Shown: positions 6,956 through 50,024 of the stretch, piece by piece
How the letters are laid out: each line of letters begins with the position of its first letter
Numbering within the stretch: the stretch's first letter is position 1
Source of the DNA: an uncultured Verrucomicrobiae bacterium
GTDB taxonomy: Bacteria; Verrucomicrobiota; Verrucomicrobiia; Palsa-1439
DNA: 64,000 bases
Direction: 5' to 3'
Assembly: GCA_963712025.1 (NCBI GenBank)
Contig: CAVQGJ010000004.1
Span: 49,836-113,835 of the forward strand
Program-made: the position numbers and the translations under genes
Notes under the pieces: model-generated
Database searches by the model: none
The model's input: only the letters and a program-made list of their open reading frames with translations
What the model was told of the DNA's origin: nothing

Positions 6956-8680
6956 ATGAAGACAACGGATGGCGGTAGGTTCCGCATCATTTCCACGGTC
7001 AACTTCGTGCTGCTGCTGATGCTCGGCACACCCTTGGTGCCGGGGGCTGTTGCCGCAAACACTCCAACCGCTGCGCCGCTTAACCCGGCCTTTCAAGAGT
7101 ATCTGGCCAACCGTCAACAAGGGATGGTTGCCCTTCAGCCAAATGAAATGTCCCGCGGGGCCATTCCGCCGCCCATGCGATTGCCCGCGCCCAGTGGCGC
7201 CGTGCCCGCGCTGGCGGCCGGCCCGTTGACACTGCCGTCTTCCTACGACCTGCGAACCCTGGGCAAGCTGACGCCAATTCGAGACCAGGACGGCTGTGGT
7301 GATTGCTGGGCCTTTGCCACCTACGCCTCGATGGAATCCTGTCTGTTGACCAATGAGACCTGGGATTTCTCGGAAAACAATCTGAATGTCACCAGTGGAT
7401 TCGATTCTGGCTGTTGCAACGGCGGCAGCAGCTATATGTCCGCCGCCTACCTGGCCCGCTGGAGCGGCCCGGTCAGCCAGTCGGATGACCCCGAGACCTG
7501 GACCGGCTGCACGACCGTGTCCGGCGTCGCTCCCCGAAAACACGTTCAGGAGGTCTTGTTTCTCCCCTTGCGCACCAGCGCGATGGACAACAACACCATC
7601 AAGCAAGCCGTGATGACGTACGGCGCGGTGTATACCGCCATCCTGGTCACGGGCGGAGCCGGGTATCTGCCACCGTATTCGGACGCCTATTACAACGCCA
7701 GCACCTACGCCTACTATTACTACGGCTCCGCCGGCACCGACCATGCCATTGCCATAGTTGGCTGGGATGACAACTTTCCCGCCAGCAATTTCAGCACGGT
7801 TCCGCCGGGCAATGGCGCCTTCATCATCCGCAACAGTTGGAGTACCGCGTGGGGCCAGAGTGGCTACTTCTACATGTCGTATTACGACACCTGGGTCGGC
7901 AACGAAGAGAACGCGGTGTTCGTGCGTCCCGATTCCACAAACAACTACGCGCGCATCTACCAGTACGACCCGTTAGGGTGGGTCACCTCTCTCGGGTATG
8001 ACGCCACGACCGCCTGGGGCGCAAACGTCTTTACCGCCATCGGCTACGAACAACTCCGCGCAGTAAGTTTTTACACGCCCGCGGTGAATTCCACTTACCA
8101 GATTTATGTGTATACCAACGCAACATCCGGTCCGACCAGCGGCACCCTGGCCAGCAGCACCGCTGGGACCACCACCCTGCCCGGTTACTTCACGATCGCG
8201 CTGCCCGCGCCGGTGAATCTGACGCCGAACCTGATGTTCTCCGTCGTGGTGGAGTTCACGACACCGGGGTACACGTATTCAGTCCCTATCGAATACGCGC
8301 TTTCCGGATACAGTAGCGCAGCGACGGCGTCGCCCGGGCAAAGCTATATCAGCCCCGATGGCAGTTCATGGGAGGATGCGACGGACTGGGATTCCACCTG
8401 CAACGTCAACATCAAGGCGTTCACATCTCTGTCGTCGCCGTACATTACCGCGCTCACGCGTTCCGGCAACAACATATCGCTCACGTGGACGACCTACGGC
8501 GGCACGACCAACGTGGTGCAGGCGACCTGTGGCGACGCCCGGGGTTGTTACTCCAACAACTTCAACGACCTCAATCCGCAGGTCATCACGACCGGCACCG
8601 GTCTGATGACGACGAACTTTACGGAAACCAATGGCGCGACCAACAGCAGCCGGTACTACCGGGTGCGGCTGGTGCAGTGA
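6956..8680 (+). CDS. Secreted papain-family (C1A) cysteine protease with lectin-like domain and short C-terminal domain
   Basis: Signal peptide; DQDGCGDCWAFA (Gln/Cys), DHAIAIVGWDD (His), IIRNSW (Asn); IYQYDPLGW-type lectin-like module follows. Confidence 0.9.
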   Translation: MKTTDGGRFRIISTVNFVLLLMLGTPLVPGAVAANTPTAAPLNPAFQEYLANRQQGMVALQPNEMSRGAIPPPMRLPAPSGAVPALAAGPLTLPSSYDLRTLGKLTPIRDQDGCGDCWAFATYASMESCLLTNETWDFSENNLNVTSGFDSGCCNGGSSYMSAAYLARWSGPVSQSDDPETWTGCTTVSGVAPRKHVQEVLFLPLRTSAMDNNTIKQAVMTYGAVYTAILVTGGAGYLPPYSDAYYNASTYAYYYYGSAGTDHAIAIVGWDDNFPASNFSTVPPGNGAFIIRNSWSTAWGQSGYFYMSYYDTWVGNEENAVFVRPDSTNNYARIYQYDPLGWVTSLGYDATTAWGANVFTAIGYEQLRAVSFYTPAVNSTYQIYVYTNATSGPTSGTLASSTAGTTTLPGYFTIALPAPVNLTPNLMFSVVVEFTTPGYTYSVPIEYALSGYSSAATASPGQSYISPDGSSWEDATDWDSTCNVNIKAFTSLSSPYITALTRSGNNISLTWTTYGGTTNVVQATCGDARGCYSNNFNDLNPQVITTGTGLMTTNFTETNGATNSSRYYRVRLVQ

Positions 8681-8706: not shown

Positions 8707-8728
8707 ACCCCGACTCCGAGGTCGGGGT
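8707..8728. terminator. Hairpin between convergent protease genes (terminator or REP-like)
   Basis: ACCCCGAC-tccgag-GTCGGGGT, 8-bp perfect stem. Confidence 0.4.
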
Positions 8729-8739
8729 CGAAAGGCGGC

Positions 8740-10696
8740 CTATGGCGCGGTGACGACCGCGCATCGCGAAGCGCAGTTCGTGGCGGCGACGTTGAACGCG
8801 GCGACTCGATACACGTAGGTCCCGCCGGACTGGGCGGTGCTATCCGTGTAGCTGGTCGCGCCGTGCCCGACCTCGTCGATCTCCTCGAAGGAACCGACCG
8901 CCCCGCTGGATTTCTCCGCGCGTTCGATCATGAACCCCTGCTCGTTGTCCGACCGGTCCGTCCAATTCAGGTCCACGGTCCCCGTGCTCGCAGGCGTCGC
9001 GGTCAACCGGCTCGGCGCGGCGGGCGCGGTCACGAGTTGTGGGCCGATCTGCTGGACCGCCGCCAGGTAGTCCACGCGCCCATGGCCGGCCCAATCGGCT
9101 CCGACACGGGCCGGGGAGTTCGTGCCGGCGTCGAGACAGGTCGTGGTGTTCAGGATGACGGCCTCAATCGCATCGGCGCTGATCGACCCATCCAGCCCGA
9201 GTTGCTCGGCGCGGGACAACAGCAACGCCGCTTCGCCGGCCACCAGGGGCGAGGCGAACGACGTGCCGTTGCCGACAAAATACGTCGGGCTGCCGGCCGT
9301 GCCCATGCCGTTGGCCTCGTCGGTCATGCTCAGCACCGCTGTGCTGACGATGTCCACCGCCGGGGCAACGACATCGACGGCTTTCCGTCCGTATTCGGAG
9401 AAACTGGCGCGGGACCGCATGGTGGCGGCGCTGCCGCCGCTCAGGATGCTGCCGCTGCCGCTGCCGCCCACGGAGATCACGTACCGATACGACGCGGGAT
9501 AACTGCGCTTGTTGGAATTGTTGTTGCCGGCCGCGGCGACGATAATGACTCCCTGGGCGTGGGCGTACTGGATCGCGCTGTCGATGATGCGGGTCGGGAC
9601 GAGGCTGCCGAAGCTCATATTGATGACGTTCGCGCCGTGGTCGGCGGCAAACTGGATCGCCTCGGCAATCGCCGTCGAAGGCGCGCCGCCCACGTTCGTA
9701 AACACCTTCAGGGGCATGATCTGGCTGTACCAGCTCGCCCCGACCACCCCAATGCCGTTGTCGGACACCGCCGCCGCCACGCCGGCCACGAACGTCCCGT
9801 GAAACACGTTGCCATCGCCCCCGCCATCGCCCAAATCCGGATCGGGATCGGGACCGTTGTTATAGAAATCCCAGCCGTGAATATCGCCCGCGTAGCCGTT
9901 GGTGGCGTCTTCGGCAGCATTCGGATTCGTCCACAGATTGGCCGCGAGATCCGGGTGGTTGGTCAGCACGCCGGTATCGATAATGGCAATGACAATGTTT
10001 GAGCTGCCCGGTCGTAACGTTCCATGCCGCTTCGGCTTCGAGGTTCGAGTCGGCGCCAATTCCATTGAAATACCAGCGCTGGAGTTCCGTCGAGTCGCCG
10101 TCGTACGAGGTGTAGTATTCGTCATTGGGCACCGCATTGATGTAATGGAGCACGTTCGGCTCGGCAAAATCGACTTCCTGCAGTTTGGCGAGTTGGTCGG
10201 CGGCGGCGGGCACCGATATTCCGCCCGACAAGACCACGAGATACTCGCCGTGCCGCACGTCCAGCGTCCGCAAAATTCGGCCGCCCAGTTCATCGACGAT
10301 TTGATCCTGGCGATGATGGGGGACGCCGCCGCGGAACCGCACGATCAACTGCCCGGGCACGTAGTTGGGTCGGCCGGAATCATCCTGTGGAGGAATGTCG
10401 CGAGCGGAGGCGAACACGACCTGTTTGTCGCCCACCGAACCGCCGTTGTCCCGGGTGGCGTTTCCGTCCGCCAGTTCACGACGCAGTTGCATGGTGGAAT
10501 CGCGGTCGGATGATTGGCGCGCGCCGCCGAGGAGCGCGTGTTGAAATCCCGCAAACGTCCACAGCGACGGCGCGCCGTTGCCCGGCACGCTCTGACCGAA
10601 TCCGCGCCCCAGGAACAGCGCCAGCAGGAGCACGACCACGGACCCGCCGTAGACGATGATTCGGCGAATTACAGATGGGCGATAAAGGAATCCCAT
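8740..10696 (-). CDS. Subtilisin-family (S8) serine protease with prodomain and C-terminal FN3 (frameshift near 10010)
   Basis: IAIIDTG, HGTFVAG, AAAGN, GTSFASPLVAG; YVPGQLIVRF prodomain; FN3 APAAPSRLTA...LNWTDRSDNEQGFMIER. Confidence 0.9.
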
Positions 10697-47773: not shown

Positions 47774-47800
47774 GCGCCAGACCGTGCGCCCATAGAAAAT

Positions 47801-47867
47801 TTGGTGCCAGGGGGGAGAGTTGAACTCCCGACCAACCCCGACACTCCGTGTCGGGGCTGCTCTACCG
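47801..47867 (-). pseudogene. tRNA pseudo-copy with anticodon arm replaced by a hairpin
   Basis: 47801-47835 is identical to 48112-48146 (tRNA 3' 35 nt). GGTAGAGCAG is also retained, and CCCCGACAC-GGA-GTGTCGGGG replaces the anticodon arm. Confidence 0.8.
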
Positions 47868-48104
47868 GCTAAACCACGCGAGTACGCGCTGAGGATTCTT
47901 CCACTTTTTGAACTGTCGCTCCAACGCCCGCGCCTCCGAGAGTGAAACCACTTCGCGACTCGCGACCAGAGCCCATGGTGCGTCGCGGCTCGTTGTGTAG
48001 GTGTGGCCCCGTGCGTGCTCCTCCAATCGCCGGGACAAATCCGTAGTGGATCCGTAGTAGTACCGTCCGGACCGAGACCGCAGGACATACACGTACGCTC
48101 CCAT
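47862..48104 (-). CDS. Small GIY-YIG nuclease
   Basis: YVYVLRS...[15 protein letters not shown]...ARALERQFK; 80 aa. Confidence 0.88.
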
Positions 48105-48112
48105 AGAAGAAT

Positions 48113-48187
48113 TGGTGCCAGGGGGGAGAGTTGAACTCCCGACCAAGGGCTTATGAGTCCCCTGCTCTACCACTGAGCTACCCTGGC
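48113..48187 (-). tRNA. tRNA with CAT anticodon (Met or Ile2), encoded CCA
   Basis: GCCAGGG/CCCTGGC acceptor stem, D arm GCTC-AGTGGTA-GAGC, anticodon loop CT-CAT-AA, GTTCAA T loop, 3' ACCA. Confidence 0.95.
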
Positions 48188-48210
48188 ACATCTAATTACA
48201 GTAAAGTATA

Positions 48211-48265
48211 TTACAACTATTTTCAATCGGCAACATTTTGTTGTTGTAACCCAATGTTGTAACCC
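48211..48265. promoter_or_regulatory. Short repeats upstream of integrase (possible arm-type binding sites)
   Basis: TGTTGTAACCC at 48242 and 48255, plus inverted TTACAAC at 48211, in an AT-rich gap. Confidence 0.45.
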
Positions 48266-48280
48266 CGTATACTGCAAAAC

Positions 48281-49486
48281 ATGAAGTCCAAGCCCATAAC
48301 TCGGTTCGATCTGCAATACGTTGGGGAAAACCTCTACCGCAACAAATCATCGGGCATTTACTATGCCCTTTTCAAACGTGACGGCAAGCAGATTCGCAAA
48401 TCCCTCAAGACCGCTGACAAGGCGATGGCCCGCCGGTACCTTGGCGACTTGCGAGGTCAAGTCCAACGATTGACGACTGCCGAGGCGAAGTCGCTACCTT
48501 TCGCCGAATACGAAAAGAACGACGAAGGCGACGAGACGCGGCTCGTGGGCGGTCTCGCGGGGCGCTGGCTCAATACCGCCGCCGTTAGCTTGAAGCCCTC
48601 TTCTCTTGACCGCCGTTTGCGCACAATCCACAGCCTGACGCCGTTCTTCAAGAACAAGACGGTCGGCAGCACCAGCAAGCTGGACGTCGAACGGTGGGCG
48701 GCACAACGAGTGACACAGTGTAAACCACGCACTTTCAACATGGAACTTGAGACCCTGAATCTCTGTTTCAAGTACGCCATTGAGCACGGGATTCTCCTGG
48801 AGAACCCCGCCGCACACATCCGCCGCCGCAAAGTGAGCAAACCGCGCCTGACGGTCCCAACGCGGCAGCAATTCAAAGAACTCTTAACCACGATTCGACA
48901 ATGCCGTACCATGACCAAGCCCTGCGCCGAAGATGAAGCGGCCGCCAACCTGATCGAGTTTCTCGCTTACAGCGGTTGCCGCTTGGCTGAGGCTGTCGGT
49001 GACCGTAAATTCGACAAAGACCCGATCACGTGGGGCGATATTGACTTCGACTTGCACACATTCACCGTGACGGGAAAGGGTTCGGACGGAGGCAAGACCC
49101 GAACCGTGCCGTTGTTCCCACCGCTTGAGCGGCTGTTGTTGAACCTCAAGGCGAAGCTGGCGACCCCGCTCCGCCCCGCCGATCCCATCTTCACCATCCA
49201 GTCCGCGAAAAAGGCCATTGAGACTGCCTGTCGTCGGTTGGGCCTGCCGCACTATCACCACCACACGTTCCGTCATTTCTTCGCCAGCAACGCCATTGAG
49301 CACGGCATCGACTTTAAGGTGATCGCTGAATGGCTTGGGCACGCCGACGGCGGCGTGCTGGTTGCCCGAACCTACGGCCATCTCCGCGCCGAACATTCGG
49401 CAGCAATGGCAAAACGTATGGTGTTCGATGCGGTCGCCGAGCTTCCCGACAATATCGTGGAACTGCCCAAGACCACGACTCGGTGA
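48281..49486 (+). CDS. Tyrosine recombinase/integrase
   Basis: FLAYSGCRLAEA (R), GKG (K), HHHTFRH (HxxR), WLGH, RTYGH (Y); N-terminal GIYYA arm domain. Confidence 0.95.
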   Translation: MKSKPITRFDLQYVGENLYRNKSSGIYYALFKRDGKQIRKSLKTADKAMARRYLGDLRGQVQRLTTAEAKSLPFAEYEKNDEGDETRLVGGLAGRWLNTAAVSLKPSSLDRRLRTIHSLTPFFKNKTVGSTSKLDVERWAAQRVTQCKPRTFNMELETLNLCFKYAIEHGILLENPAAHIRRRKVSKPRLTVPTRQQFKELLTTIRQCRTMTKPCAEDEAAANLIEFLAYSGCRLAEAVGDRKFDKDPITWGDIDFDLHTFTVTGKGSDGGKTRTVPLFPPLERLLLNLKAKLATPLRPADPIFTIQSAKKAIETACRRLGLPHYHHHTFRHFFASNAIEHGIDFKVIAEWLGHADGGVLVARTYGHLRAEHSAAMAKRMVFDAVAELPDNIVELPKTTTR

Positions 49487-50024
49487 GGCCAGTCGGCTGC
49501 GTCTCGAATTCATCCCGGATTTGCGGGGACTGGACGCATCAGTCGAAATAACAGCGGCTGAATATGAAGTGGCCATGCCAATTGTTCCAGTGCTGTGAAG
49601 ACACTGGCTAAGGGGGGATTTGATCACGAACGCCCTTGCGAAGTTGTTCCCGTTTGGGAACAAAATTATCCTTGTGACGGTCGGCGTGATGTTGCTCCAC
49701 CGTGAAACCCTAGAAGCCAGGCCGTTGGCGGAGCGAGCACTGTCCAGGTGGAGGCTGTCGTTTGCACTACCTTGACAGCGCACAGCGAGCCGTACAATGG
49801 AGGCGGGATTCACGCAAGCCTACTGGAGCCCAGCGCGAATGCGCTCCATGATTGGGATTGGGGAAAGCGATGTGCCCCGACATCCGCTGTCGGGGGACAT
49901 CGAGGGCGGCGTCGAATCGTCACCGGCAAGGCCAATATCTTCGGGCTTTGCAGCGGAGCACCGCCGTTTGTGCCGGAGCGAAAAACACGAAGTCGTTGGC
50001 TGGCCGTGCGGGTGGTTGCGGTGC

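Follow-up and report, generated by a model that had tools for sequence, protein, structure and literature searches.

Small GIY-YIG nucleases have been described beside hairpins, and GIY-YIG genes among tRNA genes. SsnA of Neisseria meningitidis is a GIY-YIG nuclease of 94 amino acids that binds a hairpin repeat on single-stranded DNA and cuts beside the hairpin, cleavage in the Ssn family being confined to single-stranded DNA a few nt upstream of it, and its authors point out the insertion sequence (IS)-like hairpin-gene-hairpin architecture of this system (PMC11893778, Chenal et al. 2025). The recognition site of the homing endonuclease SegB of phage T4 includes the conserved T-psi-C stem-loop of tRNA genes, and SegB spreads itself together with flanking tRNA DNA by cutting naive genomes (PMC2330249). 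Here we describe a cassette found in a 64,000-nt stretch of DNA from an uncultured Verrucomicrobiae bacterium (contig CAVQGJ010000004.1; the whole analysed stretch is called the window, and positions are counted from its first letter). In this cassette an 80-amino-acid GIY-YIG nuclease gene and a GC-rich hairpin are nested inside a partially duplicated tRNA gene. It resembles the Ssn and SegB systems but probably belongs to neither, and is one of a large family of such tRNA-nested cassettes. Literature searches returned no description of a GIY-YIG gene plus hairpin nested in a duplicated tRNA gene. On balance, we favour the reading that the cassette is a selfish unit of nuclease and hairpin that targets tRNA genes.

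The cassette is read on the minus strand. It starts with an intact tRNA(CAT) at 48113..48187, the functional copy (Rfam 67.4 bits) and the sole tRNA(CAT) that ARAGORN reports here, either an elongator Met or an Ile2 tRNA; 12 relatives of the genus carry it with 100% identity (13 rows including its own genome). Beyond its ACCA end follow an 8-nt spacer without a Shine-Dalgarno sequence (ATTCTTCT, 48105..48112) and, from the ATG at 48104, an open reading frame (ORF) of 80 codons for a single-domain GIY-YIG nuclease (47862..48104 including the stop; Pfam PF01541). The TAG stop at 47864..47862 is provided by a D-arm remnant, GGTAGAGCAG (47857..47866), which is identical to tRNA positions 17-26. 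Next to it, in place of positions 27-41, that is, the anticodon arm, alignment and folding identify the hairpin CCCCGACAC-GGA-GTGTCGGGG (47836..47856), a perfect palindrome that reads the same on either DNA strand and has, with its flanks, a folding energy of -13.7 kcal/mol (z -6.6). The hairpin is followed by a perfect 34-nt copy of the 3' part of the tRNA, TTGGTCGGGAGTTCAACTCTCCCCCCTGGCACCA (47802..47835), which contains the variable loop, T arm, acceptor 3' strand and ACCA; this segment occurs twice in the window, compared with no match in 100 shuffles. Between the tRNA repeats there is only the 243-nt ORF, and no recombinase gene. All parts that a sequence-only reading of this DNA had listed (tRNA, spacer, ORF, stop, hairpin, 3' copy and flank) were found in place by sequence comparison, ARAGORN, Pfam and alignment.

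The flank after either tRNA copy has the form A(T/A)TT(C/T)TTCTATGGG(A/C)GC and runs into ATGGG.GC. Downstream of the pseudo-copy, alignment and comparison with sister species define an imperfect repeat of the spacer and ORF start (AATTTTCTATGGGCGCACGG, 47781..47801), which is probably the remnant of an older cassette together with the original tRNA trailer. The trailer past the pseudo-copy is similar to the post-tRNA flank and relic start in G003 and G008, both sister species, so that the present cassette probably arrived after this older one and inserted on its tRNA side. The genome as a whole has three tRNAs with a CAT anticodon, at 48113-48187 in the window, at C2:257942-258018 and at C11:5145-5221. 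The C2 copy is initiator-like, and the window and C11 copies have the same anticodon-arm region; one of the latter two is probably a tRNA-Ile2 (with lysidine), so the label 'Met' used below is uncertain.

The protein encoded by the cassette matches the Pfam GIY-YIG family PF01541 with an E-value of 5.7e-14. In the family alignment residues Y6, Y16, G18, R25/R26, H30 and E62 are invariant, and the motifs, catalytic Arg, metal-binding Glu and beta-beta-alpha-beta-alpha fold of the GIY-YIG superfamily are all present. The AlphaFold2 model (predicted local distance difference test score, pLDDT, 91.6) has strands at residues 3-9, 15-20 and 45-52 and helices at 23-31 and 55-68; as modelled, the protein is the GIY-YIG catalytic core only and leaves no room for a DNA-binding domain. 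Among solved structures, phmmer retrieved 1zg2 (E 3.5e-8), 1ywl (E 8.5e-6) and Slx1 (E 0.03), and the top six Foldseek matches were again 1zg2 and 1ywl, followed by four Slx1 structures with template modelling (TM) scores of 0.60-0.68 and 28-36% identity. The protein thus belongs with the UPF0213/Slx1-like minimal GIY-YIG class, being domain-only and closest to BH0048, EF2693 and the Slx1 nuclease domain. NCBIfam gave nothing useful, its group I intron endonuclease model reaching 17.9 bits, below the cut-off of 56, and neither PADLOC nor PHROGs had any match for the GIY-YIG protein. The best sequence and fold matches are UPF0213 proteins (BH0048, EF2693) and Slx1. Slx1 is a structure-directed nuclease of branched and stem-loop DNA, in keeping with a hairpin or cloverleaf as substrate; however, it bears a RING domain and requires Slx4, UPF0213 has no known function or genomic rule, and neither of them is known to be linked to tRNAs or hairpins.

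As analogues, the Ssn nucleases provide the nearest working model and a precedent for hairpin recognition. Like them, the window protein (80 aa) is a single-domain GIY-YIG nuclease in the range of 80-95 aa without a DNA-binding domain; its gene also lies beside a short, GC-rich hairpin that is conserved in sequence and whose core is dispersed in the genome. However, the published SRM consensus of the Ssn hairpin repeats (NTS/SRM), HGTCWYN(0-2)YYVSBRHN(0-5)WNVSBRGN(0-2)RNCYNB, has no match within 700 nt of the gene and none in the 79 related loci, and the nine hairpin copies of the window genome compare with hundreds of Ssn repeats. The cassette is moreover nested in a duplicated tRNA gene, whereas the word 'tRNA' occurs 0 times in PMC11893778. 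A probable protein of the Ssn type (cd10448) from a Methylobacterium replicon is 40% identical to the window protein, no closer than the UPF0213 proteins are. With SegB the cassette shares a free-standing GIY-YIG gene among tRNA genes. SegB is a far larger, two-part protein with a DNA-binding part, whereas the window protein has the catalytic core only and lacks a sequence-reading DNA-binding domain. Furthermore, SegB is a phage gene that has neither a hairpin nor a hairpin-swapped partial tRNA copy, whereas the window cassette sits on a chromosome, and searches of viral collections did not find it.

The layout is not peculiar to the window. Searches of 41 related Verrucomicrobiia genomes gave 84 matches to small GIY-YIG genes in 28 of them; 54 of the 84 have a tRNA or tmRNA no more than 150 nt away, in 52 cases on the same strand, and by a rough estimate chance would place less than 1% of them so close. 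A wider scan with one genome per species returned 79 loci, 71 of which have a same-strand tRNA within 150 nt. The hosts include Verrucomicrobiota (Chthoniobacterales and Opitutaceae among them), Acidobacteriota, the Candidate Phyla Radiation (CPR), Desulfobacterota, Planctomycetota (Phycisphaerales) and one alphaproteobacterium, and the relatives of the window cassette itself are Verrucomicrobiia metagenome-assembled genomes (MAGs) from peat and soil. In 46 of these loci a tRNA stands upstream of the ORF and a hairpin with a tRNA 3' copy downstream, the copy being perfect in 35 of the 46. The stop codon ends 4-5 nt ahead of the hairpin in most of the 46, positions 27-41 are what the hairpin replaces in almost every Met-type cassette, and a hairpin core YCCCGA(A/C/T)...(A/G/T)TCGGGR is common across phyla. 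The sequence-only reading had asked whether homologous genes are flanked by tRNA and pseudo-tRNA pairs, and by these counts (54/84 and 71/79 loci, 46 full cassettes) such pairs are common. Variants of the layout also exist. In a group at tRNA-Thr the truncated copy with its hairpin comes first, upstream of the ORF, and the intact tRNA is downstream, the end of the ORF reaching 10 nt into it; in some lineages hairpins flank the ORF on both sides, or are placed in the T/variable regions.

In a tree of the GIY-YIG proteins from the related genomes, clades track the type of the neighbouring tRNA, with 20 state changes for 19 states, compared with a mean of 41 and a minimum of 37 changes when the tRNA-type labels were shuffled (n=200). 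One clade of 11 proteins has no neighbouring tRNA. The window genome encodes two further small GIY-YIG proteins. One (L213, C10:327861-328076) has no tRNA within 1.5 kb. The other (L002, C7:18161-18358), with its relatives L102, L112, L021, L026 and L065, represents a second subfamily, 38% identical, which is found ~90-180 nt past tmRNA and tRNA-Val, tRNA-Ser, tRNA-Pro and tRNA-Ala; in the loci examined two hairpins precede the gene, one terminator-like and the other a different conserved one, GCCCTnCGTAGC...GGCGAAGnAGGGC. A downstream tRNA copy is absent in the five loci of this subfamily screened for repeats (L002, L017, L021, L026 and L028).

The same survey bears on a more ordinary explanation: an integrase island since deleted, or else a simple tandem duplication, would have left the 34-nt repeat behind (as attR in the former case), with the GIY-YIG gene as residual cargo. 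Integrase-mediated insertion does typically produce direct repeats of the 3' part of a tRNA, and integrase islands and prophages in tRNAs likewise target a tRNA gene, restore it and leave a partial copy as a direct repeat. A tyrosine integrase gene (48281-49486, plus strand) is also present only 94 nt from the tRNA. However, this gene diverges from the tRNA 5' end, on the side opposite to the cassette, and has its own repeats: 37-38-nt copies of the tRNA 5' half (positions 1-37, to the anticodon loop) are found outside the window at C4:120615-120651 and C4:123730-123767, 22.6 and 25.7 kb away. The cassette itself has no recombinase between its repeats and a content of only 310 bp, and its displaced copy retains a piece of the D arm and carries a hairpin for the anticodon arm. 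In close homologues, moreover, the regions upstream of the tRNA are mutually unrelated, and an identical 300-bp layout with the same hairpin and stop geometry recurs in at least 46 genomes and at many tRNAs. We therefore rejected the scar reading, which the sequence-only reading had named as its own possible undoing, and regard it as having next to no probability. From their sequence arrangement, the integrase and the 5'-half repeats look like one or two integrase-borne islands on the tRNA 5' side, in an unusual orientation, and the window tRNA appears to serve two unrelated kinds of element.

Five homologues with 75-89% identity, from four other genomes belonging to the family and order, have exactly the layout of the window cassette, as do three further homologues from the all-species scan (L118, L120 and L121). 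The order in these close homologues is tRNA(CAT), a spacer of 7-9 nt, the ORF with its stop in (G)GTAGAGCAG, the hairpin CCCCGACA-loop-TGTCGGGG and the tRNA 3' part. The 8-bp hairpin stem is unchanged in eight of nine close cassettes, the ninth (L030) having one base change in the 3' arm; a ninth stem pair covaries (C-G or T-A), and the loops vary. Synonymous sites of the ORF are saturated (proportion of synonymous differences, pS, 0.55-0.88), and the ratio of non-synonymous to synonymous change (dN/dS) is about 0.05-0.2 where it can be estimated. An invariant stem and a low dN/dS in the face of saturated synonymous sites point to selection on both the protein and the hairpin stem. The copied 3' part matches the tRNA of its own genome at 100%, even though the T arms vary among genomes (GGGAG, GCGAG and GGGGG). 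The partial copy would thus stay matched to the real gene either through gene conversion or through copying on site.

Cassettes at this tRNA show signs of gain and loss among sister species. At the tRNA-sulfatase locus of the window, with the same sulfatase flank, the site is filled in G000, holds a relic in G008 (the ORF start fused to the ORF end plus hairpin) and is empty in G005, which amounts to the presence/absence polymorphism with empty sites that is a feature of Seg-type systems. Empty-site alleles, for which the sequence-only reading had proposed to look, are thus found in sister species at this very locus, along with a decayed one. The same tRNA in other or unverified contexts is filled in G013 and followed by relics in G003, G012 and G001. 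Two cassette lineages occur at this tRNA in a single genus; they are 57% identical and have different hairpins (CCCCGACA and CCCCGAAAG). Tandem stacks of cassettes were seen at L005/L030, L007 and L063, and seven of the 84 GIY-YIG matches among the related genomes contain in-frame stops. At L007/L044 (G011:C10, about 85186-85214), a run of 29 Ns right after the tRNA masks part of a second, upstream hairpin pseudo-tRNA of the stacked cassette.

Targets have also been switched. Cassettes at tRNA-Lys(UUU), tRNA-Lys(CUU) and tRNA-Glu fall inside a clade that is otherwise associated with tRNA-Met (Shimodaira-Hasegawa-like approximate likelihood ratio test, SH-aLRT, 90; inner forks unresolved). They have the protein type and hairpin of the Met clade, yet are flanked by pieces of the local tRNA. 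This combination suggests that the ORF and the hairpin move as a unit, while the target serves as template for the tRNA pieces. The Lys and Glu cassettes concerned are L126, L128, L130 and L137. L128 comes from an Acidobacteriota MAG and another relative, L118, from a 'Bifidobacteriaceae' MAG, which reflects either transfer across phyla or a binning error.

A consensus scan identified a promoter-like site, TTGCCG-17-TATACT, directly upstream of the tRNA (48205..48233, minus strand); between the tRNA and the ORF it found nothing that resembles a promoter or a terminator. Given these signals, the tRNA and the ORF are likely co-transcribed, and the site is probably the promoter for a transcript spanning tRNA, ORF and pseudo-tRNA. 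Such a transcript raises the alternative that the cassette's second component is an RNA: the pseudo-tRNA with its hairpin would be a structured molecule, such as a tRNA mimic, a guide, an antitoxin-like inhibitor of the nuclease, or a stabiliser or processing signal at the mRNA 3' end. The predicted transcript has no terminator ahead of the pseudo-tRNA, the ninth stem pair covaries, and the anticodon arm is swapped exactly for the hairpin, so that an arm remains at this place; the pseudo-copy, its D, T and hairpin arms all in position, still reaches 24.7 bits against the Rfam tRNA model (RF00005). However, this score is below the gathering score of 29, and three of the seven acceptor pairs are broken. 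A search for an acceptor-stem partner in the 46 cassettes found a best pairing of 5.04/7, compared with 5.27/7 in shuffles. Without a 5' strand of the acceptor stem, the pseudo-tRNA cannot be a substrate for RNase P or a synthetase. The tRNA-mimic RNA offered by the sequence-only reading, namely a folded cloverleaf, was rejected on these grounds. As for the other RNA roles, the stem is conserved in sequence, beyond what structure alone would ask for, other lineages carry their hairpins in T/variable regions or upstream of the ORF, and the palindrome is identical on both DNA strands. The sole characterised small hairpin-binding GIY-YIG nuclease binds no RNA (PMC11893778). We consider an RNA partner improbable.

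For a selfish cassette, the following course of events can be proposed. A nuclease of ~80 aa of the UPF0213/Slx1 type and its GC-rich hairpin would reside inside a partial tandem duplication of a tRNA gene, in which one tRNA copy is intact and the other is truncated on the ORF side and has its anticodon arm swapped for the hairpin. The gene would be expressed from the tRNA promoter. Its product would bind the cassette's own hairpin, most likely as extruded or single-stranded DNA, and nick beside it; alternatively, the nick could be made in the cloverleaf-forming DNA of a tRNA gene. Repair would then copy the ORF and the hairpin into the tRNA gene, duplicating the D-arm and 3' segments of the target, and the same repair process would hold the duplicate identical to the resident tRNA. 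In this manner the cassette may persist and spread as selfish DNA, while the essential tRNA is never destroyed. A ~310-bp selfish unit at tRNA 3' ends, without an integrase and unlike any characterised system, had already been put forward by the sequence-only reading, and the tRNA association together with the empty and relic alleles supports it; homing itself we infer.

Two groups of known elements share parts of this scheme. Endonuclease ORFs of the Allomyces atp6 type in fungal mitochondria insert in the 3' part of an essential gene and duplicate that part, so that the gene stays functional and a pseudo-copy follows. Those elements have protein-coding organelle targets, larger nucleases and no hairpin. 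The duplicated part of the present cassette matches its local target, which argues for copying on site, unlike the Allomyces elements, where it is carried in. IS200/IS605 TnpA and the REP/RAYT systems likewise combine a small nuclease with subterminal or dispersed hairpins recognized in single-stranded form, and have solo hairpins scattered around. In contrast to the cassette, however, they belong to the HUH superfamily with its strand transfer and are not nested in tRNAs; a GIY-YIG enzyme cannot rejoin DNA.

Several observations weigh against a selfish cassette. A filled allele retains an intact tRNA and hence any target borne by the tRNA, so classical homing with an immune donor fits awkwardly. 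No relatives were found in the viral contigs of IMG/VR; phage and plasmid records gave only two weak phage and 12 weak plasmid matches, all distant, and both plasmid loci examined (L218 and L219) lack an adjoining tRNA. These viral, phage and plasmid collections thus identified no transfer vehicle. All the genomes compared are MAGs. Hairpin counts in the related genomes do not track the Met-type GIY-YIG lineage, and the solo hairpins in G021 and G003 are embedded in other, longer palindromic repeats with no tRNA part after them, so that the hairpin may be an independent repeat. Finally, deep divergence under strong purifying selection also fits a vertically inherited, host-useful gene with losses.

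This last point leads to the second alternative, a domesticated host gene. The nuclease would serve the cell and sit behind tRNAs only for their strong promoter, and the pseudo-tRNA would be a by-product of its arrival. Roles that can be envisaged are the processing of hairpin or cruciform DNA at heavily transcribed tRNA loci, a modulation of recombination or transformation as by SsnA, and the guarding of the tRNA 3' end, where integration is favoured, from integrating elements. Purifying selection is strong (dN/dS 0.05-0.2) and synonymous divergence saturated; an old protein clade of its own goes with each tRNA type, as positional orthologues would show; and the gene is apparently co-transcribed with the tRNA and missing from phage, plasmid and viral collections except for the weak distant matches. 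An integrase island uses this very tRNA, and SsnA has a host-level role in Neisseria (PMC11893778). However, members of a single genus differ in whether they have the gene, and one and the same locus shows relics, in-frame stops and an empty site; two diverged lineages occupy one tRNA in one genus, and there are tandem stacks and switched targets. A host gene would also have no need to rebuild a hairpin-disrupted tRNA copy at each tRNA, and PADLOC has no match for it. We regard domestication as unlikely, although less so than an RNA partner, and retain the selfish cassette as our preferred reading.

The hairpin core CCCCGAC..GTCGGGG was counted separately. It occurs three times in the window, where none is expected: in the cassette, at 8708-8727 and at 49875-49895, the last of which the sequence-only reading had not listed. 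The pattern CCCCGACA-N3-8-TGTCGGGG has nine copies in the window's own genome and 33 in G021, and is missing from 14 of 15 genomes sampled outside the order, G039 having a single copy; a reversed control was almost always zero. G003, G010 and G014 have 11-12 hairpins without the Met-type lineage, and the counts are confounded by phylogeny. The hairpin count was accordingly dropped as support for a link with the nuclease, and solo hairpins were rejected as relics of cassettes on account of their tRNA-free palindromic surroundings in G021 and G003. Of the kinship that the sequence-only reading had seen between the cassette and the hairpin at 8708, what holds up is the shared core motif, a dispersed repeat; a functional tie to the GIY-YIG gene would be conjectural.

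Two long convergent ORFs (6956..8680, plus strand, and 8740..10293, minus strand) leave a gap of 59 nt, which contains the hairpin at 8708-8727 (CCCCGACTCCGAGGTCGGGG); no T-run comes after this hairpin. At 49875-49895 the core forms the centre of a longer palindrome (CGATGTG-hairpin-GACATCG) in a repeat of at least 70 nt, which recurs, inverted, at C1:37003 of the same genome and in the relative G003 (C36:8619). A separate family of ~70-nt repeats, …GCCAGACCGGCCGGTCAGCCAG-CCCCGAC..GTCGGGG-CCAGCGCGCGCTCC…, contains a shorter version of the core and has at least seven copies in the genome (C1:688773, C2:139986, C2:181835, C7:15600, C11:73009, C11:332651 and C11:520786).

Going beyond the window cassette, we tentatively consider a minimal class of mobile elements, a broader proposal that we hold to be possible rather than probable. 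In such a new class a domain-only, structure-specific GIY-YIG nuclease, lacking any sequence-reading protein module, would be aimed by the shape of DNA, both that of its own conserved hairpin and that of the cloverleaf into which single strands of tRNA genes can fold. On insertion, ~10 nt of the D arm and ~35 nt of the 3' part of the target would be copied in place, which amounts to a very long target duplication. This would open every tRNA gene to invasion without loss of the gene and allow targets to be switched, as from Met to Lys/Glu. The dispersed solo hairpins would represent non-autonomous relatives.

Genes for small 'GIY-YIG nuclease family proteins' rank with the most common bacterial genes that lack an explanation. 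A large share of these small genes follow a strict genomic rule, in that they are found inside a duplicated tRNA gene with a cognate hairpin. The 34-nt copy, non-functional and yet kept letter-perfect beside its gene, makes the cassette a case of interest for gene conversion. If the mobility proposed here is true, a nuclease-only, hairpin-linked element would join the short list of elements that target tRNA genes, and a source would be at hand for many of the pseudo-tRNA fragments that confuse tRNA annotation. These natural pairs of a tiny nuclease and a DNA hairpin would also, like the Ssn enzymes, be candidate tools specific for single-stranded or structured DNA.

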